Shown: positions 1-9,554 of the stretch, one piece after another
How the letters are laid out: each line of letters starts with the position of its first letter
Position numbering within the stretch: the first letter of the stretch is position 1
Source of the DNA: a virus
Lineage: Duplodnaviria; Heunggongvirae; Uroviricota; Caudoviricetes
Reading direction: 5' to 3' (one strand)
Virus record (IMG/VR): IMGVR_UViG_2778261381_000013
Coordinates: 1-9,554 of that record
Length of the DNA: 9,554 nucleotides
Position numbers and translations under genes: made by a program
Notes under the pieces: model-generated
What the model was told of the DNA's origin: nothing
What the model saw: the letters and a program-made list of their open reading frames with translations, nothing else
Database searches by the model: none

Positions 1-1089
1 ATGACCAACATTCCCGACGGTATGGACTGGGGCGTCATTGATGGCAACCTGATAAACATCGCAGTTGGTCCGAGTGATGATTCCGGTACGGGGCGCTCAA
101 TGCATGTATGGCGCAGCACTGTAAGTAAAGCCAACTACCGCTTTTTTATGGTGCGCATTTCAGGAAATCCGGGAAGCCGCACGATCACAACAAGACGAGT
201 ACCAATCATTGACGAAGCCCAGACATGGGGCGCGAAACAGACATTCAGTGCTGGCCTTTCTGGTGAACTGTCCGGCAATGCGGCGACAGCAACAAAGCTG
301 AAAACAGCCCGTAAAATTAATAACGTTTCGTTTGATGGAACATCAGATATTAACCTGACGCCGAAAAATATTGGTGCATTTGCTTCAGGAAAAACAGGAG
401 ACACTGTTGCGAATGATAAAGCCGTTGGATGGAACTGGAGTAGCGGAGCCTATAACGCAACTACTGGTGGGGCATCAACGTTAATTCTTCATTTTAATAT
501 CGGTGAAGGAAGTTGTCCCGCCGCCCAGTTTCGCGTTAATTATAAGAACGGTGGTATTTTTTATCGTTCTGCTCGTGACGGTTACGGATTCGAGGCTGAC
601 TGGTCTGAGTTTTATACCACAACGCGAAAACCTACAGCGGGAGATGTCGGTGCACTGCCGTTATCTGGTGGTCAATTGAATGGTGCTCTGGGTATAGGAA
701 CATCCAGTGCTCTTGGCGGTAATTCGATTGTTTTGGGTGATAATGACACGGGCTTTAAACAAAATGGTGATGGTAATCTGGATGTTTATGCTAATAGCGT
801 CCATGTTATGCGCTTTGTCTCCGGAAGCGTTCAAAGTAATAAAACCATAAATATTACGGGGCGTGTTAATCCCTCGGATTACGGTAACTTTGATTCCCGC
901 TATGTGAGAGATGTCAGACTTGGCACACGTGTTGTCCAGACCATGCAGAAAGGGGTGATGTATGAGAAAGCAGGGCACGTAATTACCGGTCTTGGTATTG
1001 TCGGTGAAGTCGATGGTGATGACCCCGCAGTATTCAGACCAATACAAAAATACATCAATGGCACATGGTATAACGTCGCACAGGTGTAA
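1..1089 (+). CDS. H: Tail fiber protein, C-terminal ~362 aa; the ORF is open to the window edge so the real start is upstream
   Basis: Long + strand ORF ending TAA 1087-1089, directly followed by the tail fiber assembly gene (ATG 1093). Gly/Ser/Asn/Thr-rich translation typical of phage fibers. Position immediately before G matches P2 gene order. Family call from memory of P2-like fibers, not a search. Confidence 0.8.
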   Translation: MTNIPDGMDWGVIDGNLINIAVGPSDDSGTGRSMHVWRSTVSKANYRFFMVRISGNPGSRTITTRRVPIIDEAQTWGAKQTFSAGLSGELSGNAATATKLKTARKINNVSFDGTSDINLTPKNIGAFASGKTGDTVANDKAVGWNWSSGAYNATTGGASTLILHFNIGEGSCPAAQFRVNYKNGGIFYRSARDGYGFEADWSEFYTTTRKPTAGDVGALPLSGGQLNGALGIGTSSALGGNSIVLGDNDTGFKQNGDGNLDVYANSVHVMRFVSGSVQSNKTINITGRVNPSDYGNFDSRYVRDVRLGTRVVQTMQKGVMYEKAGHVITGLGIVGEVDGDDPAVFRPIQKYINGTWYNVAQV

Positions 1090-1092
1090 TTT

Positions 1093-1620
1093 ATGCAGCA
1101 TTTAAAAAATATTACTGCGGGTAATCCAAAAACTGTTGCCCAATATCAACTGACAAAAAATTTTGATGTTATCTGGTTATGGTCCGAAGAGGGAAAAAAC
1201 TGGTATGAGGAAGTAAGTAATTTTCAGGAAGACACGATAAAGATTGTTTACGATGAGAATAATATAATTGTCGGCATCACCAGAGATGCTTCAACGCTCA
1301 ACCCTGAAGGTTTTAGCGTTGTCGAGGTTCCTGATATTACCGCCAACCGACGTGCTGATGACTCAGGTAAATGGATGTTTAAGGATGGTGCCGTGATTAA
1401 GCGGATTTATACGGCAGACGAACAGCAACAACAGGCAGAATCACAAAAGGCCGCGTTACTTTCCGAAGCGGAAAGCGTTATTCAGCCACTGGAGCGCGCT
1501 GTCAGGCTGAACATGGCAACAGATGAGGAGCGTAGCCGACTGGAAGCATGGGAACGCTACAGTGTTCTGGTCAGCCGTGTGGATCCTGCAAATCCTGAAT
1601 GGCCGGAAATGCCGCAATAA
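1093..1620 (+). CDS. G: Tail fiber assembly protein (chaperone), 175 aa
   Basis: ORF 4 nt after the H stop with AGGTG upstream as a Shine-Dalgarno site. Size and position after H match P2 gpG (175 aa, from memory). C-terminal acidic/Trp-rich tail ([11 protein letters not shown]) is typical of Tfa-type chaperones. Confidence 0.8.
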
Positions 1621-1670
1621 GTTGTATGAGCTGACATATCTATAGCACAGAGTAAAGCCTAATCTGACAG

Positions 1671-1694
1671 TCCGCTCTGTGCAAGGAGCGGACA
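1671..1694. terminator. GC-rich hairpin between convergent genes (G on +, AT-rich gene on -); possible bidirectional terminator
   Basis: Seen in sequence: GTCCGCTC (1671-1678) and GAGCGGAC (1687-1694) form a perfect 8-bp stem with an 8-nt loop, in the 151-bp gap between two convergent stops. No clean U-tract on either strand, so intrinsic-terminator function is uncertain. Confidence 0.3.
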
Positions 1695-1771
1695 TTACCT
1701 AACACATTGGTAACCTTCACAGATTTACGCGTTCTACATAGTTAGCATTGTATCTGATGAGTTATCATGTT

Positions 1772-2551
1772 TTAAAATATCCAACTGATAAATCCACCTG
1801 AATACTTTTCACTAATTTTGATTGCATAAAGATCATGAAGAGTTATAAATAAATCATTATCTTCTTTGAAAATTAACTCCTCATATTCTGCCATTATCAA
1901 ATTATGCTGTGTTGTTAGTTTAGATATGTTATCTATTTCACTGGCAAGCATGGATTTGTTTACATTGGTGTGTGGATTCATGGCAATATATTTCCGCATC
2001 AATGGAATTAGTTGTTCAGGGTCTATATTTTTTGCATTTTCCTTTGCTTTTTTTTGTCTTTCTGAATAGATGGAGTTAATTGTGTTAGTGTGTTTTTTCG
2101 CCAGCCTCTTAAACTCTGGATATGAACCAGTAACTAATGCAAGCTCTTCGTACTTAAGGAATAAATCGATATTGCATTTTTTTACCGTCATTTCAAGATC
2201 TTCAACTCTTTTTTTTAACTCTTCATTTGTTTTAATAAGAGACATCGGGAGAACTTCATAATGTTGTCCTAATTCTGAATCAGGGCTCATTGCCATATGT
2301 ACTATTTCATTATACATGAGCTGATAAGAAGCAGATAACTCTCCATACTTTAGAAATAGTTCATTATGTGAAGATGAACAAGAACTTTGTAATTTCATCA
2401 TTGGCCTAAAGTAATCCTTTATAAACTCCTCCTGAAGATCTTGGTCTTTTTTGTAGCTCTCTAGGATTCCAGCAAAAAGAAATGACCCTAAAGATATAGA
2501 GATTATGGATATTAGCAATTGACTAAGGAATGATTGTGTTTCATTACTCAT
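1772..2551 (-). CDS. Hypothetical membrane-anchored protein, 259 aa, AT-rich cargo gene at the G/FI (Z/fun) hotspot; candidate superinfection-exclusion or anti-phage protein
   Basis: Minus-strand ORF, ATG at 2551 with AAGGA 7 nt upstream on the - strand. Composition differs sharply from flanking tail genes (18 G+C in the 60 nt 1861-1920, i.e. 30%). N-terminal hydrophobic segment LLISIISISLGSFLFAGIL followed by KK, then a mostly charged, helix-prone body with an internal repeat LFLKYGEL / LFLKYEEL. No Walker, nuclease or other catalytic motif recognised. Same position and opposite orientation as the P2 Z/fun locus (established knowledge of P2 organisation). Confidence 0.7.
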   Translation of the reverse strand: MSNETQSFLSQLLISIISISLGSFLFAGILESYKKDQDLQEEFIKDYFRPMMKLQSSCSSSHNELFLKYGELSASYQLMYNEIVHMAMSPDSELGQHYEVLPMSLIKTNEELKKRVEDLEMTVKKCNIDLFLKYEELALVTGSYPEFKRLAKKHTNTINSIYSERQKKAKENAKNIDPEQLIPLMRKYIAMNPHTNVNKSMLASEIDNISKLTTQHNLIMAEYEELIFKEDNDLFITLHDLYAIKISEKYSGGFISWIF

Positions 2552-2810
2552 AAAACATCCTTAAAAAATAACACGAAAAGTGACTCCTGACAGGAAAGAA
2601 ACGACAGGTCGGAAACAAACTTAACTGATGAGTTAGCCGTAGTCCAGAACCTTGTTTGAACACTTAGTGTGACTGTTTGCATCTCAGGAATTTGTGCCAA
2701 TAATATTTGAATCCTTATAATTTATTTAAATCAAATTTAGTTACTCGCTCAAAGCAGGCTGTCAGATTTGATAGCGTTTGGGCTATGTAAACTGTCAGTC
2801 GGAAAATGAG

Positions 2811-2828
2811 TGTGTACAAATCAGGACA
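2811..2828 (+). promoter_or_regulatory. Candidate Ogr-dependent late promoter element (TGT-N12-ACA) for the FI operon
   Basis: Seen in sequence: TGT (2811-2813), 12 nt, ACA (2826-2828); the only TGT-N12-ACA in the 400-bp region upstream of FI. P2 late promoters carry this dyad centred near -55 (established knowledge), which would put the transcript start near 2875, about 75 nt before the FI ATG at 2952. No strong -10 hexamer found, as expected for an activator-dependent promoter. Confidence 0.4.
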
Positions 2829-2951
2829 GGCGAGCTGATTGCCCGCCTTTTCTTTATCTGTTGTTTCATCCACTGACCAGCCAGGTCAAATAGCGTCTCA
2901 TGCTCTGCACAACAGAAAATAGTTGCACCCATTAACCACGGAGTTAAACGG

Positions 2952-4142
2952 ATGAGTGACTATCATCATGGCGTGCAGGTGCTGGAGATTAACGACGGCA
3001 CCCGCGTCATTTCCACCGTATCCACTGCCATTGTCGGCATGGTCTGCACGGCCAGCGATGCGGATGCGGAAACCTTCCCCCTCAATAAACCGGTGCTGAT
3101 TACCAATGTGCAGAGCGCAATTGCAAAGGCCGGTAAAAAAGGCACGCTGGCGGCATCGTTACAGGCCATCGCTGACCAGTCAAAACCGGTCACCGTTGTC
3201 GTGCGTGTGGAAGACGGCACCGGCGAAGACGAGGAAACGAAACTTGCGCAGACCGTTTCCAATATCATCGGCACCACCGACGAAAACGGTCAGTACACCG
3301 GACTGAAAGCCCTGCTGGCGGCGGAGTCGGTAACCGGTGTTAAACCGCGCATTCTCGGTGTGCCGGGACTAGACACCAAAGAGGTTGCCGTCGCACTGGC
3401 ATCAGTCTGTCAGAAGCTGCGCGCTTTCGGGTATATCAGCGCATGGGGCTGTAAGACCATTTCCGAGGTGAAAGCCTACCGCCAGAATTTCAGCCAGCGT
3501 GAGCTGATGGTCATCTGGCCGGATTTCCTCGCATGGGATACGGTCGCCAGTACCACCGCCACCGCGTATGCCACCGCCCGTGCGCTGGGGCTGCGCGCTA
3601 AAATCGACCAGGAGCAGGGCTGGCATAAAACGCTGTCCAACGTCGGGGTGAACGGTGTTACCGGCATCAGCGCGTCCGTATTCTGGGATTTGCAGGAGTC
3701 CGGCACCGATGCTGACCTGCTTAACGAGTCAGGCGTCACAACGCTGATTCGGCGTGACGGTTTCCGCTTCTGGGGTAACCGTACCTGCTCTGATGACCCG
3801 CTGTTCCTCTTTGAAAACTACACCCGCACCGCGCAGGTGCTGGCCGACACGATGGCTGAGGCGCATATGTGGGCGGTGGACAAGCCCATCACCGCAACGC
3901 TGATTAGCGACATCGTTGACGGCATCAATGCCAAATTCCGAGAGCTGAAAACAAACGGCTATATCGTGGATGCGACCTGCTGGTTCAGCGAAGAATCCAA
4001 CGATGCGGAAACCCTCAAGGCCGGAAAACTGTATATCGACTACGACTATACACCGGTGCCTCCTCTTGAAAACCTGACCCTGCGCCAGCGTATTACCGAT
4101 AAATACCTGGCAAATCTGGTCACTTCGGTTAACAGCAATTAA
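2952..4142 (+). CDS. FI: Contractile tail sheath protein, 396 aa
   Basis: ORF with GGAG 9 nt upstream of the ATG; 396 aa, first gene after the variable region and directly before the tube gene, as in P2. N-terminus MSDYHHGVQVLEINDGTRVI matches my recollection of P2-family sheath proteins. Confidence 0.93.
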   Translation: MSDYHHGVQVLEINDGTRVISTVSTAIVGMVCTASDADAETFPLNKPVLITNVQSAIAKAGKKGTLAASLQAIADQSKPVTVVVRVEDGTGEDEETKLAQTVSNIIGTTDENGQYTGLKALLAAESVTGVKPRILGVPGLDTKEVAVALASVCQKLRAFGYISAWGCKTISEVKAYRQNFSQRELMVIWPDFLAWDTVASTTATAYATARALGLRAKIDQEQGWHKTLSNVGVNGVTGISASVFWDLQESGTDADLLNESGVTTLIRRDGFRFWGNRTCSDDPLFLFENYTRTAQVLADTMAEAHMWAVDKPITATLISDIVDGINAKFRELKTNGYIVDATCWFSEESNDAETLKAGKLYIDYDYTPVPPLENLTLRQRITDKYLANLVTSVNSN

Positions 4143-4154
4143 GGAGCCTGACCG

Positions 4155-4673
4155 ATGGCAATGCCGCGCAAACTCAAGTTAATGAACGTCTTTCTGAACG
4201 GCTACAGCTATCAGGGCGTTGCAAAGTCCGTCACGCTGCCAAAACTGACCCGTAAGCTCGAAAACTATCGCGGTGCGGGGATGAACGGCAGCGCACCGGT
4301 AGACCTCGGCCTTGATGACGATGCACTGTCAATGGAGTGGTCACTCGGGGGCTTCCCGGATTCGGTTATCTGGGAGCTTTACGCCGCAACCGGCGTGGAT
4401 GCCGTGCCGATTCGTTTTGCTGGTTCTTACCAGCGCGACGATACCGGCGAAACGGTGGCCGTCGAAGTGGTCATGCGTGGACGTCAGAAAGAAATCGACA
4501 CCGGCGAGGGTAAACAGGGAGAAGACACCGAGTCGAAAATCTCCGTGGTCTGCACCTATTTCCGGCTGACGATGGACGGTAAGGAGCTGGTCGAAATTGA
4601 CACCATCAACATGATTGAGAAGGTGAACGGCGTCGACCGGCTGGAGCAACACCGCCGCAATATCGGCCTGTGA
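4155..4673 (+). CDS. FII: Tail tube protein, 172 aa
   Basis: ORF 12 nt after the FI stop with a strong AAGGAG site (4142-4147). Size and position match P2 gpFII. Confidence 0.93.
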   Translation: MAMPRKLKLMNVFLNGYSYQGVAKSVTLPKLTRKLENYRGAGMNGSAPVDLGLDDDALSMEWSLGGFPDSVIWELYAATGVDAVPIRFAGSYQRDDTGETVAVEVVMRGRQKEIDTGEGKQGEDTESKISVVCTYFRLTMDGKELVEIDTINMIEKVNGVDRLEQHRRNIGL

Positions 4674-4680
4674 TTTTCAT

Positions 4681-4701
4681 CCGGTCAGCCTGGCTGACCG
4701 G
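4681..4701 (+). promoter_or_regulatory. GC-rich hairpin in the FII-E intergenic region; possible attenuator or mRNA-stability element
   Basis: Seen in sequence: CCGGTCAGC (4681-4689), CTG, GCTGACCGG (4693-4701), a 9-bp perfect stem with a 3-nt loop (or 8 bp with 5-nt loop), 8 nt after the FII stop. No U-tract follows, so not a canonical intrinsic terminator. Sits between high-copy (sheath, tube) and low-copy (E, T) genes. Confidence 0.35.
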
Positions 4702-4729
4702 TTAACCCCGATTCATAAGTGAGAAAACC

Positions 4730-5005
4730 ATGAACAAAGAAAATGTGATTACCCTGGACAATCCGGTCAAACGTGGTGAGCAGGTCATCGAACAGGTCAC
4801 GCTGATGAAACCCAATGCCGGGACGCTGCGCGGTGTCAGTCTGGCTGCGGTCGCAAACTCCGAAGTCGATGCACTGATTAAGGTGCTGCCGCGCATGACG
4901 GCACCGATGCTGACCGAGCAGGAGGTCGCCGCGCTGGAACTGCCTGACCTTGTGGCGCTGGCCGGTAAGGTGGTCGGTTTTTTGTCTCCGAACTCGGTGC
5001 AGTGA
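4730..5005 (+). CDS. E: Tail assembly chaperone gpE, 91 aa (zero-frame product)
   Basis: ORF ending TGA 5003-5005; 91 aa, located between the tube and tape-measure genes. Sequence MNKENVITLDNPVKRGEQVIEQV... matches my recollection of P2 gpE. Confidence 0.88.
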   Translation: MNKENVITLDNPVKRGEQVIEQVTLMKPNAGTLRGVSLAAVANSEVDALIKVLPRMTAPMLTEQEVAALELPDLVALAGKVVGFLSPNSVQ

Positions 5006-5157
5006 CGTTTCCGAAAAATCTGTCGGTCGATGACCTGATGGCAGATGTGGCAGTGATATTTCACTGGCCGCCATCAGAACTGTATCCCATGAGCCTGACC
5101 GAACTCATCACATGGCGCGAAAAGGCGCTCCGGCGAAGCGGAAACACGAATGAGTAA
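4730..5157 (+). CDS. E': Tail assembly chaperone E+E', 142 aa, made by -1 programmed ribosomal frameshift at 4978-4984
   Basis: Hand translation: slippery TTTTTTG at 4978-4984 inside E; shifting to -1 and resuming at GTC 4984 gives an open frame of 57 codons (VSELGAVTFPKNLSVDDLMADVAVIFHWPPSELYPMSLTELITWREKALRRSGNTNE) ending TAA 5155-5157, which overlaps the ATG of T (5150). 85 + 57 = 142 aa, matching P2 E+E' (established knowledge). The -1 frame has no start codon of its own. Confidence 0.8.
4978..4984 (+). other. Slippery heptamer TTTTTTG for the E/E' -1 frameshift
   Basis: Seen in sequence: T run 4978-4983 followed by G 4984, read as G GTT TTT TGT in the E frame region (codons TTT 4979-4981, TTG 4982-4984). 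Confidence 0.75.
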
Positions 5158-7597
5158 CAATGTAAAATTACAGGTATTGCTCAGGGCTGTTGACCAGGCA
5201 TCCCGCCCGTTTAAATCCATCCGCACAGCGAGCAAATCGCTGTCGGGGGATATCCGGGAAACACAAAAATCACTGCGCGAGCTGAACGGTCACGCATCCC
5301 GTATTGAGGGATTTCGCAAGACCAGTGCACAGCTCGCCGTGACTGGTCATGCACTTGAAAAGGCACGGCAGGAAGCCGCAGCTCTGGCTGTCCAGTTTAA
5401 AAATACTGAACGACCGACAAATGCACAGGCAAAGGCAATGGAAGCCGCGCGTAAAAATGCGTCTGAGTTACAAGCGAAATATAACAGCCTGAGATTGTCG
5501 GTACAGCGCCAGCGTCAGGAATTGAGTCAGGCGGGTATTAATACCCGCAATCTTGCACATGATGAGCAGGGACTGAAAAACCGTATCAGTGAAACCACCG
5601 CACAGCTTAACCGTCAGCGTGACGCGCTGGCGCGTGTCAGTGCGCAACAGGCAAAACTTAACGCAGTAAAACAGCGTTATCAGGCCGGAAAGGAACTGGC
5701 CGGAAATATGGCCTCAGTGGGCGCTGCCGGTGTGGGGATTGCGGCGGCGGGAACGATGGCCGGAGTTAAGTTGCTGATGCCCGGTTATGAGTTTGCGCAG
5801 AAAAACTCAGAATTGCAGGCCGTGCTAGGTGTGGCAAAAGACTCCGCCGAAATGGCTGCACTACGCAAGCAGGCGCGCCAGCTCGGTGACAACACCGCCG
5901 CCTCAGCGGATGATGCGGCCGGTGCACAGATTATCATTGCGAAAGCGGGTGGAGATGCTGCGGCTATTCAGGCGGCAACGCCGGTCACGCTGAATATGGC
6001 TCTGGCGAATCAGCGGTCGATGGAAGAAAACGCACAACTGTTGCTGGGGACTAAGGCATCCTTTCAACTGTCAAATGATGATGTCAGCCATGTGGGCGAC
6101 GTGTTGTCGGCAACGATGAATAAGTCGGCAGCTGATTTTCAGGGACTCAGTGATGCACTGACTTACCTCGGGCCGGTTGCGAGGACGGCAGGTGTAAGTC
6201 TTGAGCAGGCAGCGGCCATGACAGGTGTGCTGCATGACAATAACATCAGGGGGTCAATGGCGGGGACGGGTAGCAGTGCCGTTGTCACCCGATTACAGGC
6301 TCCGACAGGGAAAGCATGGGAAGCACTCAAAGAGCTTGGCGTTAAAACCTCGGACAAAAAGGGAAATATGCGTCCGTTGTTCACCATTCTGAAAGAGATT
6401 CAGGCCAGCTTTGATAAACACAAGCTGGGAACGTCTCAGAAGGGGGAATACCTTAAAACCATTTTTGGTGAGGAAGCCCTGAAATCAGCGAACGTTTTAC
6501 TGGCAGCGGCAGCAAGCGGAAAACTGGACACGCTGACCGCCACGCTGAAAGCCTCGGACGGTAAAACGGAAGAGCTGGTTAAAATCATGCAGGATAACCT
6601 CGGCGGCGACTTTAAGGAGTTTCAGTCCGCTTATGAGGCGGTGGGGACTGACCTGTTTGACCAGCAGGAAGGCGCACTGCGTAAGCTCACGCAGACGGCC
6701 ACAAAGTATGTGTTAAAACTCGACGGCTGGATCCAGAAAAACAAATCACTGGCGTCAACCATCGGCCTCATTGTCGGTGGCGCACTGGCGCTGACTGGCA
6801 TCATCGGTGCCATTGGTCTTGTCGCCTGGCCGATTATCACCGGCATCAATGCCATCATCGCGGCAGCAGGCGCAATGGGGGCAATCTTCACGACGGTTGG
6901 CAGTGCCGTTATGACGGCCATCGGGGCGATTAGCTGGCCGGTTATGGCCGTGGTGGCCGCCATTGTCGCCGGGGCGTTGCTTATCCGTAAATACTGGGAG
7001 CCTGTCAGCGCATTCTTTGGTGGTGTGGTTGAAGGGCTGAAAGCGGCATTTGCGCCGGTGGGGGAACTGTTCACGCCACTTAAACCGGTTTTTGACTGGC
7101 TGGGTGAAAAGTTACAGGCCGCGTGGCAGTGGTTTAAAAAACTGATTGCCCCGGTCAAAGCCACCCAGGACACCCTGAACCGTTGCCGTGACACGGGCGT
7201 CATGTTCGGGCAGGCACTGGCTGACGCGCTGATGCTGCCGCTTAATGCGTTCAACAAACTGCGCAGCGGTATTGACTGGGTACTGGAAAAACTCGGTGTT
7301 ATCAACAAAGAGTCAGATACACTTGACCAGACCGCCGCCAGAACTCAAGCCGCCACGTATGGCAGCGGTGGTTATATTCCGGCGACCAGCTCTTATGCAG
7401 GCTATCAGGCTTATCAGCCGGTCACGGCACCGGCTGGCCGCTCTTATGTGGACCAGAGTAAAAACGAATATCACATCAGTCTGACGGGCGGTACTGCGCC
7501 GGGGACTCAGCTCGACCGCCAGTTACAGGATGCGCTCGAAAAATACGAGCGGGATAAACGTGCGCGCGCCCGTGCCAGCATGATGCATGACGGTTAA
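5150..7597 (+). CDS. T: Tail tape measure protein, 815 aa
   Basis: Longest ORF in the window. Ala/Gln-rich helical N-terminal half, long hydrophobic Gly/Ala/Ile-rich segment around residues 530-615, position after the E/E' frameshift pair. Size matches P2 gpT. ATG overlaps the E' stop. Confidence 0.93.
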   Translation: MSNNVKLQVLLRAVDQASRPFKSIRTASKSLSGDIRETQKSLRELNGHASRIEGFRKTSAQLAVTGHALEKARQEAAALAVQFKNTERPTNAQAKAMEAARKNASELQAKYNSLRLSVQRQRQELSQAGINTRNLAHDEQGLKNRISETTAQLNRQRDALARVSAQQAKLNAVKQRYQAGKELAGNMASVGAAGVGIAAAGTMAGVKLLMPGYEFAQKNSELQAVLGVAKDSAEMAALRKQARQLGDNTAASADDAAGAQIIIAKAGGDAAAIQAATPVTLNMALANQRSMEENAQLLLGTKASFQLSNDDVSHVGDVLSATMNKSAADFQGLSDALTYLGPVARTAGVSLEQAAAMTGVLHDNNIRGSMAGTGSSAVVTRLQAPTGKAWEALKELGVKTSDKKGNMRPLFTILKEIQASFDKHKLGTSQKGEYLKTIFGEEALKSANVLLAAAASGKLDTLTATLKASDGKTEELVKIMQDNLGGDFKEFQSAYEAVGTDLFDQQEGALRKLTQTATKYVLKLDGWIQKNKSLASTIGLIVGGALALTGIIGAIGLVAWPIITGINAIIAAAGAMGAIFTTVGSAVMTAIGAISWPVMAVVAAIVAGALLIRKYWEPVSAFFGGVVEGLKAAFAPVGELFTPLKPVFDWLGEKLQAAWQWFKKLIAPVKATQDTLNRCRDTGVMFGQALADALMLPLNAFNKLRSGIDWVLEKLGVINKESDTLDQTAARTQAATYGSGGYIPATSSYAGYQAYQPVTAPAGRSYVDQSKNEYHISLTGGTAPGTQLDRQLQDALEKYERDKRARARASMMHDG

Positions 7598-7611
7598 GGA
7601 GGTGACGAAAA

Positions 7612-8091
7612 ATGATGCTCGCGTTAGGTATGTTTGTTTTTATGCGCCAGACGCTGCCACACCAGACCATGCAGCGTGAATCAGATTATCGCTGGCCGTC
7701 AAATTCCCGTATCGGTAAACGGGATGCCTTTCAGTTTCTCGGTGTGGGTGAGGAAAACATGACGCTTGCCGGTGTGCTTTATCCCGAACTGACCGGCGGC
7801 AAGCTGACGATGACCACGCTCAGGCTGATGGCAGAGGAAGGTCGGGCGTGGCCGTTGCTGGATGGCACCGGCATGATTTACGGCATGTATGTCATCAGCA
7901 GGGTGAGTGAAACAGGGAGTATTTTCTTTGCAGATGGCACACCCCGGAAAATTGATTTTACGCTGTCGCTCACCCGCGTTGATGAATCACTGGCCGCGCT
8001 TTATGGCGATATCGGTAAACAGGCGGAATCGCTCATCGGTAAGGCCGGCAGTATGGCGACCAGATTCACGGGTATGACGGGGGCGGGATAA
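7612..8091 (+). CDS. U: Tail protein gpU, 159 aa
   Basis: ORF with a strong AAGGAGGTGA site ending 7 nt before the ATG; stop TAA (8089-8091) overlaps the D start (ATG 8091-8093). Position and size match P2 gpU. Confidence 0.88.
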   Translation: MMLALGMFVFMRQTLPHQTMQRESDYRWPSNSRIGKRDAFQFLGVGEENMTLAGVLYPELTGGKLTMTTLRLMAEEGRAWPLLDGTGMIYGMYVISRVSETGSIFFADGTPRKIDFTLSLTRVDESLAALYGDIGKQAESLIGKAGSMATRFTGMTGAG

Positions 8092-9254
8092 TGCTGGATG
8101 CGCTGACATTTGATGCAGGCAGTACACTGACGCCGGATTACATGCTGATGCTCGACAGCAGGGATATTACCGGCAATATCAGCGATCGTCTGATGAGCAT
8201 GACCCTGACGGATAACCGGGGCTTTGAGGCTGACCAGCTTGATATTGAACTGAACGATGCCGACGGGCAGGTCGGGCTGCCGGTTCGTGGCGCTGTCCTG
8301 ACGGTGTATATCGGCTGGAAAGGTTTTGCCCTGGTATGCAAAGGGAAATTCACCGTTGATGAGGTTGAACACCGGGGCGCACCGGATGTGGTCACCATCC
8401 GCGCCCGGAGTGCAGATTTTCGCGGGACGCTCAATTCCCGCCGTGAAGGCTCCTGGCATGACACCACGCTCGGTGCGATTGTTGAGGCGATAGCTTCCCG
8501 TAACAGGCTGGAAGCCAGTGTCGCGCCGTCACTGGCAGGAATTAAAATCCCACACATCGACCAGTCGCAGGAGTCTGATGCGAAATTCCTGACCCGTCTT
8601 GCAGAACGCAACGGCGGTGAGGTCTCGGTAAAAATGGGAAAACTGCTGTTTCTCAAAGCGGGGCAGGGGGTGACGGCCAGCGGTAAAAAAATCCCGCAGA
8701 TTACCATCACCCGCAGTGACGGCGACCGCCATCATTTTGCGATTGCTGACCGTGGAGCCTATACCGGCGTAACAGCAAAGTGGTTACACACCAAAGACCC
8801 GAAACCGCAAAAGCAGAAGGTAAAACTGAAACGCAAAAAGAAAGAAAAACACCTGCGCGCACTGGAGCACCCGAAAGCGAAACCGGTCAGGCAGAAGAAA
8901 GCGCCTAAAGTACCGGAAGCGCGCGAAGGTGAATACATGGCCGGTGAGGCTGATAACGTTTTTGCCCTGACCACGGTATATGCCACGAAAGCGCAGGCCA
9001 TGCGCGCCGCTCAGGCGAAGTGGGATAAACTGCAACGGGGCGTAGCGGAGTTCTCCATCAGCCTGGCTACCGGTCGTGCTGATATTTACACGGAAACACC
9101 GGTTAAAGTGTCAGGCTTTAAGCGCGTCATAGACGAGCAGGACTGGACAATCACTAAGGTGGCACATTTTCTGAATAATAGCGGCTTCACGACGTCCTTA
9201 GAGCTTGAGGTCAGGCTTTCTGATGTGGAGTACGGAACCGAAGATGATGAGTGA
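8091..9254 (+). CDS. D: Tail protein gpD (late control D family), 387 aa
   Basis: ORF translationally coupled to U through ATAATG; 387 aa; last structural gene before ogr, as in P2. Contains an internal Lys-rich segment. Confidence 0.88.
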   Translation: MLDALTFDAGSTLTPDYMLMLDSRDITGNISDRLMSMTLTDNRGFEADQLDIELNDADGQVGLPVRGAVLTVYIGWKGFALVCKGKFTVDEVEHRGAPDVVTIRARSADFRGTLNSRREGSWHDTTLGAIVEAIASRNRLEASVAPSLAGIKIPHIDQSQESDAKFLTRLAERNGGEVSVKMGKLLFLKAGQGVTASGKKIPQITITRSDGDRHHFAIADRGAYTGVTAKWLHTKDPKPQKQKVKLKRKKKEKHLRALEHPKAKPVRQKKAPKVPEAREGEYMAGEADNVFALTTVYATKAQAMRAAQAKWDKLQRGVAEFSISLATGRADIYTETPVKVSGFKRVIDEQDWTITKVAHFLNNSGFTTSLELEVRLSDVEYGTEDDE

Positions 9255-9272
9255 TGTTTTTATTTTATCTGT

Positions 9273-9301
9273 TTGTTTTGTAAGGATAAATTAACTAAAA
9301 T
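9273..9301 (+). promoter_or_regulatory. Candidate sigma70 promoter for ogr (TTGTTT-N17-TAAAAT)
   Basis: Seen in sequence: TTGTTT 9273-9278, 17-nt spacer, TAAAAT 9296-9301, in the AT-rich gap after the D stop. Followed by GGAAGAGG (9320-9327) and the ogr ATG at 9336. Hexamers picked by eye, no scoring matrix. Confidence 0.3.
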
Positions 9302-9335
9302 GGCACCATCAACAAAACCGGAAGAGGTGCTCGCG

Positions 9336-9554
9336 ATGTTTCATTGTCCTTTATGCCAGCATGCCGCACATGCGCGTACAAGTCGCTATATCACTGACAC
9401 GACAAAAGAGCGTTATCACCAGTGTCAGAACGTGAATTGCAGCGCCACGTTCATCACTTATGAGTCGGTACAGCGATACATCGTGAAGCCGGGAGAAGTC
9501 CACGCCGTAAGGCCGCACCCGTTGCCGTCAGGGCAGCAAATTATGTGGATGTAA
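9336..9554 (+). CDS. ogr: Late gene transcriptional activator Ogr, zinc-finger protein, 72 aa
   Basis: Translation from ATG 9336 (MFHCPLCQHAAHARTSRYITDTTKERYHQCQNVNCSATF...QQIMWM) has the Cys-X2-Cys-X22-Cys-X4-Cys zinc finger and matches my recollection of P2 Ogr (72 aa). GGAAGAGG sits about 8 nt upstream. The ORF-track start at 9273 is a TTG with no Shine-Dalgarno site and lies in the putative promoter, so the shorter ORF is preferred. Confidence 0.88.
   Translation: MFHCPLCQHAAHARTSRYITDTTKERYHQCQNVNCSATFITYESVQRYIVKPGEVHAVRPHPLPSGQQIMWM

Follow-up and report, generated by a model that had tools for sequence, protein, structure and literature searches.

What does a P2-like prophage carry between its tail fiber assembly gene and its tail sheath gene, and what might the single gene found there do? 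We addressed this question for a 9,554-nt stretch of viral DNA (positions 1 to 9,554 of IMG/VR record IMGVR_UViG_2778261381_000013; hereafter, the window), which its open reading frames (ORFs), its Pfam and PHROG matches, and the translation of ogr identify as part of the tail-gene block of a P2-like Escherichia coli prophage. The junction at positions 1621-2951 is the Z/fun cargo slot ("moron position 2") of this prophage. It is occupied by a one-gene, AT-rich cassette whose 259-aa product is a candidate anti-phage protein of the cell envelope.

The identity of the slot follows from its neighbors, the P2 annotation, the combination of conserved flanks with a variable insert, and the literature. 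The left neighbor is the tail fiber assembly gene G (1093..1620, plus strand; Pfam Caudo_TAP, E 1e-36; phrog_136, E 2e-81), and the right neighbor is the sheath gene FI (2952..4142, plus strand; Pfam Phage_sheath_1 and Phage_sheath_1C; phrog_23, E 2e-159). Both identities agree with the original prediction, made from the sequence alone, of a foreign module between G and FI. The same prediction had equated the slot with Z/fun of P2, and the P2 reference annotation does put fun(Z) right here, between the same two genes and on the opposite strand, with the PF activator site following. The junction has been named P2 moron position 2 (PMC3573123), has been described as the Z/fun hotspot (bioRxiv 10.1101/2024.10.15.618418), and is a second defense-enriched locus of P2, with three validated systems besides fun (PMC9519451). 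These three sources bear out the expectation of lysogenic-conversion or defense cargo here, although the cargo is not always defensive: the slot can also hold neaT, an acyltransferase gene associated with virulence (PMC3573123), or sopE in its SopE-cassette, which encodes a type III secretion system effector (PMC7380047). The locus is already known, and the new part is the cargo family, with the element at the cassette borders as a side lead.

Between the end of G at 1620 and the start of FI at 2952 there is only one long ORF, at 1772-2551 on the minus strand. This cargo gene encodes 259 aa and corresponds to L-413Cp20 (NP_839869) and WP_077727464. Its coordinates leave noncoding flanks of 151 bp on the 3' side and 400 bp on the 5' side, exactly as first described. 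In 200-nt windows, the GC content was 0.29-0.37 over 1701-2700, compared with 0.45-0.53 in G and 0.53-0.62 in FI, and the GC content at third codon positions was 0.28 for the cargo ORF versus 0.685 for FI. In junction alignments with P2, P2-EC58, and P2-EC67, the backbone was conserved at 1621-~1696 and at ~2743-2951; beyond ~1696 the sequence was unrelated to any of the three. The conserved left border, 1621..1696, is annotated as a "left inverted repeat" in GenBank records of the AJ5126xx series. The suggested checks of windowed GC, codon usage, and alignment against P2 and its relatives all came out as anticipated, with the flanks kept and an AT-rich insert varying between them. The foreign composition of the module was correctly recognized, but its size of ~1.3 kb was not: the foreign part is ~1697-2742, or 1046 bp rather than 1331 bp, with a GC content of 0.323 against 0.46-0.555 in the surrounding backbone. 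Similarly, an AT-rich gene on the opposite strand does break the tail block, but the block is GC-rich only downstream, with a GC content of 0.47 in the C-terminal part of the tail fiber gene H, 0.45 in G, and 0.555 from FI to D.

Of 5,426 complete E. coli genomes, approximately 1,020 carry the flanks of the slot and 13 carry the full insert; among phages, the flanks occur in 70 records and the full insert in Yersinia phage L-413C. The content of the slot therefore differs among related prophages, as had been claimed, and the insert is a rare allele. Over 1621-2951 the window is identical (100%) to E. coli 09-02E and 99.5% identical over 1331 bp to L-413C, which carries the same cassette. In a lambdoid prophage and in loci of Enterobacter, Phytobacter, and Superficieibacter, homology begins at 1670 and ends at 2755-2767, with 85-88% nucleotide identity (77-88% over all non-P2 loci compared), and the sequence outside the cassette is otherwise unrelated to the window. 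Since a lambdoid prophage and chromosomal islets elsewhere in the Enterobacterales contain it border to border, the cassette (1697..2742, gene on the minus strand) moves as a unit.

The cargo protein has no match in Pfam or PADLOC and no meaningful match in NCBIfam. Its only PHROG match is phrog_7729 (E 3e-125, unknown function), the model of which spans residues 79-259 only, so other annotators must have called a shorter ORF. Membership in the Fun(Z) family was rejected (best BLASTP E 0.42 over 14 residues), and no similarity was seen to the Z-region ORFs of P2-EC58 and P2-EC67. The protein does have homologs, which form 45 clusters, nearly all of 257-262 aa apart from a few truncated calls, with identities of 38-97%. 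Their hosts include Enterobacterales (Pectobacterium among them), Vibrio, Teredinibacter, and Marinomonas. An exhaustive profile search of 1.84 billion representative sequences recovered only 91, almost all of them single-domain proteins of 250-300 aa. Full-length conservation across these clusters and representatives, together with a confident AlphaFold2 model, indicates a real and constrained protein.

AlphaFold2 predicted an N-terminal hydrophobic helix followed by a four-helix bundle (pLDDT 80, pTM 0.71). The hydrophobic helix spans residues ~9-30, with a mean hydropathy of 2.36 over residues 12-30, and the long helices span residues 34-88, 100-141, 144-190, and 196-250. The most conserved residues at the membrane-proximal ends of the bundle are E31, Y33, K34, and D36 just after the hydrophobic helix and I246, S247, G253, and F254 near the C-terminus, where the sequence GGFISWIF is conserved. 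Across 100 near-full-length members, the most conserved positions of all are C58 and C126, present in 95 and 93, respectively. The two cysteines co-occur: 93 members have both, 5 have neither, and 2 have one. No other cysteine is present in 80% of family members. Judging from the secondary structure of the model, C58 and C126 would be roughly level with each other on neighboring antiparallel helices, given that 58 + 126 is close to 88 + 100.

The cysteine pair, the long basic N-terminal tails of some members, and the N-terminal caspase domain of one relative are the reasons for favoring an N-in/C-out, disulfide-bonded bundle. Where members have long N-terminal tails, those tails are basic, with a net charge of +1.4 compared with -0.3 after the helix. 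The relative in question, P0119 (512 aa, a metagenomic representative), has a Peptidase_C14 caspase domain at residues 2-219 (E 2e-17), N-terminal to the helix and bundle. Besides this protein, no further domain fusions informative on function were found. We consider an N-in/C-out orientation with the bundle in the periplasm likely, and we infer a cytoplasmic N-terminus, a C58-C126 disulfide within the periplasmic bundle, and a placement of the most conserved residues beside the membrane surface.

To see what company the family keeps, we inspected the genomic contexts of homologs, using a closer alignment (A1) for the locus search, for which divergence within the broad alignment of the family (A4) was too great. 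The homolog was solitary in every context inspected, and P2 tail genes were absent from its vicinity in all 8 species-representative loci. In a lambdoid prophage it occupies the moron region, after lambda-P/PerC/DUF977. Elsewhere it adjoins an Mrr-type nuclease (Mrr_cat) in an Enterobacter islet, follows a type I restriction-modification (R-M) operon directly and precedes an HNH nuclease in Vibrio, adjoins AbiEii and ParDE near Rhs fragments, or lies near IS110 and a HEPN gene. In Pectobacterium, its surroundings are orphan immunity genes of the Rhs type and remnants of a prophage. Another homolog has an integrase and an Hcp-VgrG-Rhs island next to it, and a further one lies, in Pseudomonas, at the edge of a strain-variable spot holding either a YobI-type ATPase or a two-partner-secretion toxin. 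The homologs thus keep to the neighborhood of conflict systems, most of which act against phages and some of which are linked to polymorphic toxins.

Two further features of these neighborhoods were recorded. A DUF4440 (SnoaL-like) gene lies directly downstream of the homolog both in the Enterobacter islet (L014, 9041-9397) and in the Vibrio defense island (L140, 7127-7513); this adjacency could reflect chance or a recurrent neighboring cassette. In the Pectobacterium island (L017, 13657-15578), a thymidylate-synthase-like gene adjoins an aGPT-Pplase3/ADDT gene. These are enzymes of the DNA hypermodification type, which suggests that the island is the remnant of a prophage with modified DNA.

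Cassettes bounded by the same border element as ours, described below, provided a second view of likely function. We collected 58 of them, with products falling into 38 protein clusters and a mean GC content of 0.40. Representatives of 28 clusters were scanned; one of the 10 others is the cargo family itself, and most of the rest appeared by eye to be regulatory or metabolic (LysR, transporters, GNATs). Matches among the 28 included DRT RT_UG17, AbiH, DarT, a CAP12/Pycsar-type TIR protein, Mrr_cat/PD-DExK, and RelA_SpoT, along with an AAA_13 ATPase, the PADLOC candidates PDC-S06, PDC-S33, and PDC-S35, mad3, DUF6602, and an Exo_endo_phos nuclease. Other products included an immunity protein of the CdiI type and a protein with a transglycosylase domain, and approximately a quarter of the sampled cassettes looked metabolic or regulatory. 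Single-gene anti-phage functions are clearly over-represented in this pool, which makes it more probable from the outset that the 259-aa protein has such a function.

Taken with the defense genes that adjoin the homologs (Mrr_cat, AbiEii/ParDE, R-M with HNH, HEPN/IS110, and the YobI-type ATPase), the moron slot in the lambdoid prophage, and the three validated systems from the G-FI slot (PMC9519451), this tips the balance modestly toward some anti-phage role for the cargo. As to how it would act, our proposal is that a promoter of its own drives expression of the gene in the lysogen and that the protein works alone at the cell envelope. There it would shield the lysogen against other phages, most likely by disturbing the tail-tip or ejection machinery with which they pass their DNA through the periplasm and inner membrane. 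The mode would be superinfection exclusion, like that of P22 SieA or T4 Sp, rather than abortive infection. During late lytic growth of the P2-like phage itself, read-through from the opposed late operons would run antisense to the cargo gene. We favor exclusion at the envelope because the protein acts alone, has almost no cytoplasmic part, and has its conserved residues near the membrane, but as a specific mechanism, argued by analogy, it is put forward tentatively and falls somewhat short of an even chance.

Inner-membrane proteins that exclude superinfecting phages include Sp and Imm of T4, Sim of P1, the lactococcal Sie2009, and gp15 of HK97. The closest parallel in our proposal is SieA of P22, which blocks DNA delivery by interfering with the conduit that the ejection proteins form across the periplasm and membrane (PMC10883804). 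Like proteins of the SieA type, the cargo is a single, small, prophage-encoded protein predicted to sit in the inner membrane; the likeness in mode of action and in expression by the lysogen would follow from the proposal. Unlike them in sequence, it matches none of these families in Pfam or PHROGs, and no solved structure resembles its fold in a specific way.

Several observations weigh against this proposal. The cargo has no similarity to known defense or exclusion families in PADLOC, Pfam, PHROGs, or NCBIfam: PADLOC-DB 2.0, including the PD-T4, PD-lambda, and PD-T7 systems, gave no match at E<=1 for the cargo and scattered single weak matches for 58 family members, and Pfam and PHROG profiles of known superinfection-exclusion families (Imm, Sp, SieA, SieB, gp15-like, Cor/Llp) did not match it. 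Comparison of fold and sequence with solved and viral structures returned only generic helical bundles, and our literature search found no paper on the cargo protein or any member of its family. The caspase fusion in P0119 is a singleton from one metagenomic sequence, and its nearest stand-alone relatives have no caspase neighbor. Lysine and arginine around the helix of the cargo itself number 0 before and 3 after, which favors the opposite topology, so the periplasmic assignment rests on family-level arguments. The two cysteines may alternatively contribute to binding a metal. In a consensus scan for promoters and terminators, neither a minus-strand promoter nor a strong sigma-70 consensus turned up ahead of the cargo gene, the overall number of sites found being at chance level. 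Lastly, the slot and the related cassettes do carry non-defense cargo (neaT and sopE in the former; CdiI, GNAT, LysR, and transporter genes in the latter).

Within an anti-phage role, the main alternative to exclusion is abortive infection, in which the bundle would sense a perturbation of the envelope and then insert into or disrupt the inner membrane or activate a host factor, so that the infected cell is killed or arrested. The layout of P0119 suggests transmembrane signaling from the bundle to the cytoplasmic protease. For the cargo, solitary action and a cytoplasmic part of only ~8 residues mean that blocking fits better than signaling, and we regard a membrane sensor or effector of this kind as unlikely.

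We hold it equally unlikely that the cargo is a lysogenic-conversion gene with no defense role, serving envelope remodeling, stress tolerance, or interaction with the host. The slot is functionally mixed, as neaT (PMC3573123) and the SopE-cassette (PMC7380047) illustrate, as is the cassette pool with its metabolic or regulatory quarter, and one UniRef member of the family is named "lysogenic conversion protein", although this is an annotation only. Against such a role stand the recurring defense-gene neighborhoods and the range of hosts, which spans marine, plant-associated, and enteric bacteria (Teredinibacter, Vibrio, Marinomonas, Pectobacterium); a distribution from free-living marine to enteric hosts argues against a host-specific virulence function.

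A little more doubtful still is an orphan immunity protein, acquired as a lysogenic-conversion gene and directed against a toxin acting in the periplasm or membrane, such as a contact-dependent inhibition (CDI) toxin, a type VI secretion or Rhs effector, or a bacteriocin. Homologs do lie in an orphan-immunity array downstream of an Rhs/PAAR toxin (with Imm26 and DUF4303), beside the Hcp-VgrG-Rhs island, near Rhs fragments, and beside the two-partner-secretion toxin locus of Pseudomonas, and a CdiI-type immunity protein is among the cassettes with the same boundary element. A solitary, membrane-anchored, periplasmic protein would also be typical of the class. However, no cognate toxin gene adjoins the homolog in any context, phage contexts included; R-M, Abi, or Mrr neighbors are at least as frequent; and at 259 aa the protein is large for an immunity protein and matches no immunity family.

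An opposite topology, with a cytoplasmic, membrane-tethered four-helix bundle binding metal through conserved cysteine and histidine residues as a hemerythrin-like sensor, is improbable, since the ligand set H, HxxxE, H, HxxxxD is absent, only two histidines are semi-conserved, a quarter of the family has Q, N, or D in place of H62, the hemerythrin/HHE cation-binding domain was rejected by its model (TIGR02481, 12.8 bits against a cut-off of 51.75), and the long charged N-tails and the 265-residue caspase domain of relatives are implausible as exported segments.

The sequence around the cargo gene was examined for regulatory sites. In the sense of Juhala and Hendrix, a moron lies within an operon region of a phage and is transcribed independently, between a promoter and a terminator that belong to it. 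The cargo gene is on the opposite strand and has a good ribosome-binding site, AAGGA at 2558..2562 on the minus strand, 6 nt upstream of the ATG at 2551. The 191 nt upstream of the start codon on the same strand (2552..2742) travel with the ORF and are conserved together with it in unrelated contexts; the cargo's own promoter presumably lies within them. The strand, the ribosome-binding site, and the co-traveling upstream region would fit a moron, but the consensus scan and fold predictions showed no consensus sigma-70 promoter and no canonical terminator.

Alignment with the P2 annotation places the position homologous to the PF activator (Ogr) binding site at 2858..2884 (plus strand) and the PF transcription start at 2926-2928. 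The cargo start codon is ~306 bp from the activator site, and 191 bp of that distance is insert, which corrects an earlier figure of about 260 bp before the candidate late promoter. The consensus scan also picked up a terminator-like GC hairpin with a T-run at 2829..2853 (plus strand), in the right flank upstream of the PF site. This hairpin is conserved in P2, EC58, and EC67, its fold energy is not above that of shuffled sequences, and it might stop late-operon read-through past the cargo slot. Two small minus-strand ORFs, 2715-2873 and 2795-2932, were considered as a second cargo gene and set aside as probably spurious calls. Both fall within the conserved PF promoter region, in which indels distinguish related phages. 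The two overlap and match the two halves of phrog_11095 in different frames; probably they are spurious calls that were propagated into that PHROG family.

The borders of the cassette are related 24-nt palindromes, hpB on the left and hpA on the right. The hpB half of the boundary element was located at 1659..1699 on the plus strand (nhmmer, model positions 35-75, E 1.6e-4), and its palindrome at 1670-1693, GTCCGCTCTGTGCAAGGAGCGGAC, is a GTCCGCTTTGTGCCAGAAGCGGAC-like pattern match (0.01 expected by chance) with a strong predicted stem-loop. The right border, 2741..2768, consists of a degenerate hpA half (TCGCTCAAAGCAGGC, ~2741-2762) and the right inverted-repeat arm, and it aligns with TCGCTCACAGCGGAC in other loci. 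The inverted-repeat arms, 1661-1685 and 2744-2768, are 25 nt long and 80% identical. Repeats in the Z region were reportedly first described by Nilsson et al. in 2004. The arms seen here align with the inverted repeats that the Z-region records AJ512683 and AJ512685 mark on either side.

In other loci the two halves form a composite of hpA (GTCCGCTnnTCGCTCACAGCGGAC), a spacer of ~18 nt, and hpB (GTCCGCTTCGTGCCAGnAGCGGAC), ~66 nt in all, which recurs every 0.3-2.7 kb. When the 15-mer TCGCTCACAGCGGAC was used as bait, it was found in 105 stretches of viral contigs; a complete hairpin arm (<=1 mismatch) was present at 58 of 107 matches, far above chance, and most matches showed the full composite. 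Collecting elements with an hpA bait biases the set, but the extra copies within arrays are independent of the bait. An nhmmer model of the element found it in 81 loci, with at least 2 copies in 43; examples are L136 (3999-4071), L008 (5096-7810), L014 (6124-8882), and the arrays in L039, L107, L113, and L031. In the G-FI slot of the P2-like phage 899, a full element lies exactly between two cargo genes and an hpB half marks the left border, and in the lambdoid phage PhiR11_1 an element separates two hypothetical genes downstream of the side tail fiber gene. Neighboring elements were co-oriented in 37 of 38 pairs, and the genes within cassettes were free in orientation (24 versus 13). The cassettes that the elements set apart, in P2-like and lambdoid prophages as well as chromosomal islets, are AT-rich and mostly hold one gene.

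By BLAST, which has limited sensitivity for such short queries, the full composite was present in 108 of 5,426 complete E. coli genomes, at a median of one place per genome, and in 5 of 50,697 phage records. These E. coli counts reject a high-copy repeat of the REP/BIME type, which would number tens to hundreds per genome. The stems of the element are 86.6% paired, which is not above shuffled sequences; compensatory changes are not above the control, and the loops are more conserved than the stems. Recognition of the element by sequence is at least as likely as selection for structure. No Rfam family covers the borders or the insert, and the element was not found in Rfam or in the literature searched. 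It is partly anticipated by the inverted repeats in the GenBank records of 2003-2004 and by the literature on the SopE-cassette.

Among known systems, integrons likewise have arrays of mostly single-gene cassettes and co-oriented, imperfect palindromes of ~60-80 nt; the cargo bounded by our element is defense-rich. In contrast, gene orientation is free here, no attC core motifs were recognized, and the loops are more conserved than the stems. An attC identity was rejected on the free gene orientation and on stem covariation no higher than the control, and no integron integrase was seen in the homolog neighborhoods listed above. The SopE-cassette offers another parallel: it is a single-gene unit with constant flanks that occurs in prophages of the P2-like type and of the lambdoid type alike (PMC7380047, citing Mirold 2001). 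Our cassette also occurs in both kinds of prophage, and the cargo genes are unrelated.

A bolder reading would make the element a dedicated cassette-exchange system, with a site- or structure-specific recombinase, or phage recombinases acting on linkers, moving self-promoted and largely anti-phage single-gene cassettes among P2-like phages, lambdoid phages, and Enterobacterales islets, and with our cargo as founder of a new periplasm-facing class of exclusion proteins. We regard this combination as speculative and rather unlikely. If the exchange-system part were true, the element could be used as a tag to harvest unknown defense genes. The element may also matter more broadly as a searchable signature for the swapping of single-gene defense cassettes between unrelated temperate phages, which recent surveys document and leave mechanistically unexplained.

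For the cargo itself, the outcome is an orphan family that is rare and well conserved and has been assigned no domain. Its fold is predicted with confidence, and it probably resides in the periplasm. The gene is found in L-413C, a phage used in plague diagnosis, in prophages of the P2-like and lambdoid types, and in defense islets. The gene in L-413C (L-413Cp20, phrog_7729) lies in essentially the same cassette, and both annotations read "unknown function". Compared with Z/fun of P2, the locus has the same G-FI slot, borders, and PF promoter and an equally AT-rich, opposite-strand, variable cargo, whereas the proteins are unrelated and differ in length (528 aa for Fun(Z), 259 aa here). If the cargo does exclude phages at the envelope, it would represent a new single-gene exclusion family, easily tested as one 1-kb cassette, and would bear on which lysogens a therapeutic or diagnostic phage can infect.

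The remainder of the window holds further genes of the P2-like tail block. The C-terminal part of the tail fiber gene H occupies 1-1089 (Pfam and PHROG), and FI is followed by the tube gene FII (4155-4673; Pfam and PHROG), the tape measure gene T (5150-7597), and then U and D. An E ORF at 4730-5005 and an overlapping ORF at 5002-5157 are laid out like the E/E' tail-chaperone pair of P2, which is made by -1 frameshifting according to the annotations of P2 and L-413C. At the right end, the late activator gene ogr is complete (9339-9554; zinc-finger CPLC...CQNVNC); the listed ORF is longer, with a TTG start, and the P2-type protein begins MFHCPLCQ. The GC content also drops to 0.35-0.39 within 1001-1300, where H ends and the first half of G lies, which fits the known mosaic, host-range-swapping tail fiber and chaperone module beside the slot.

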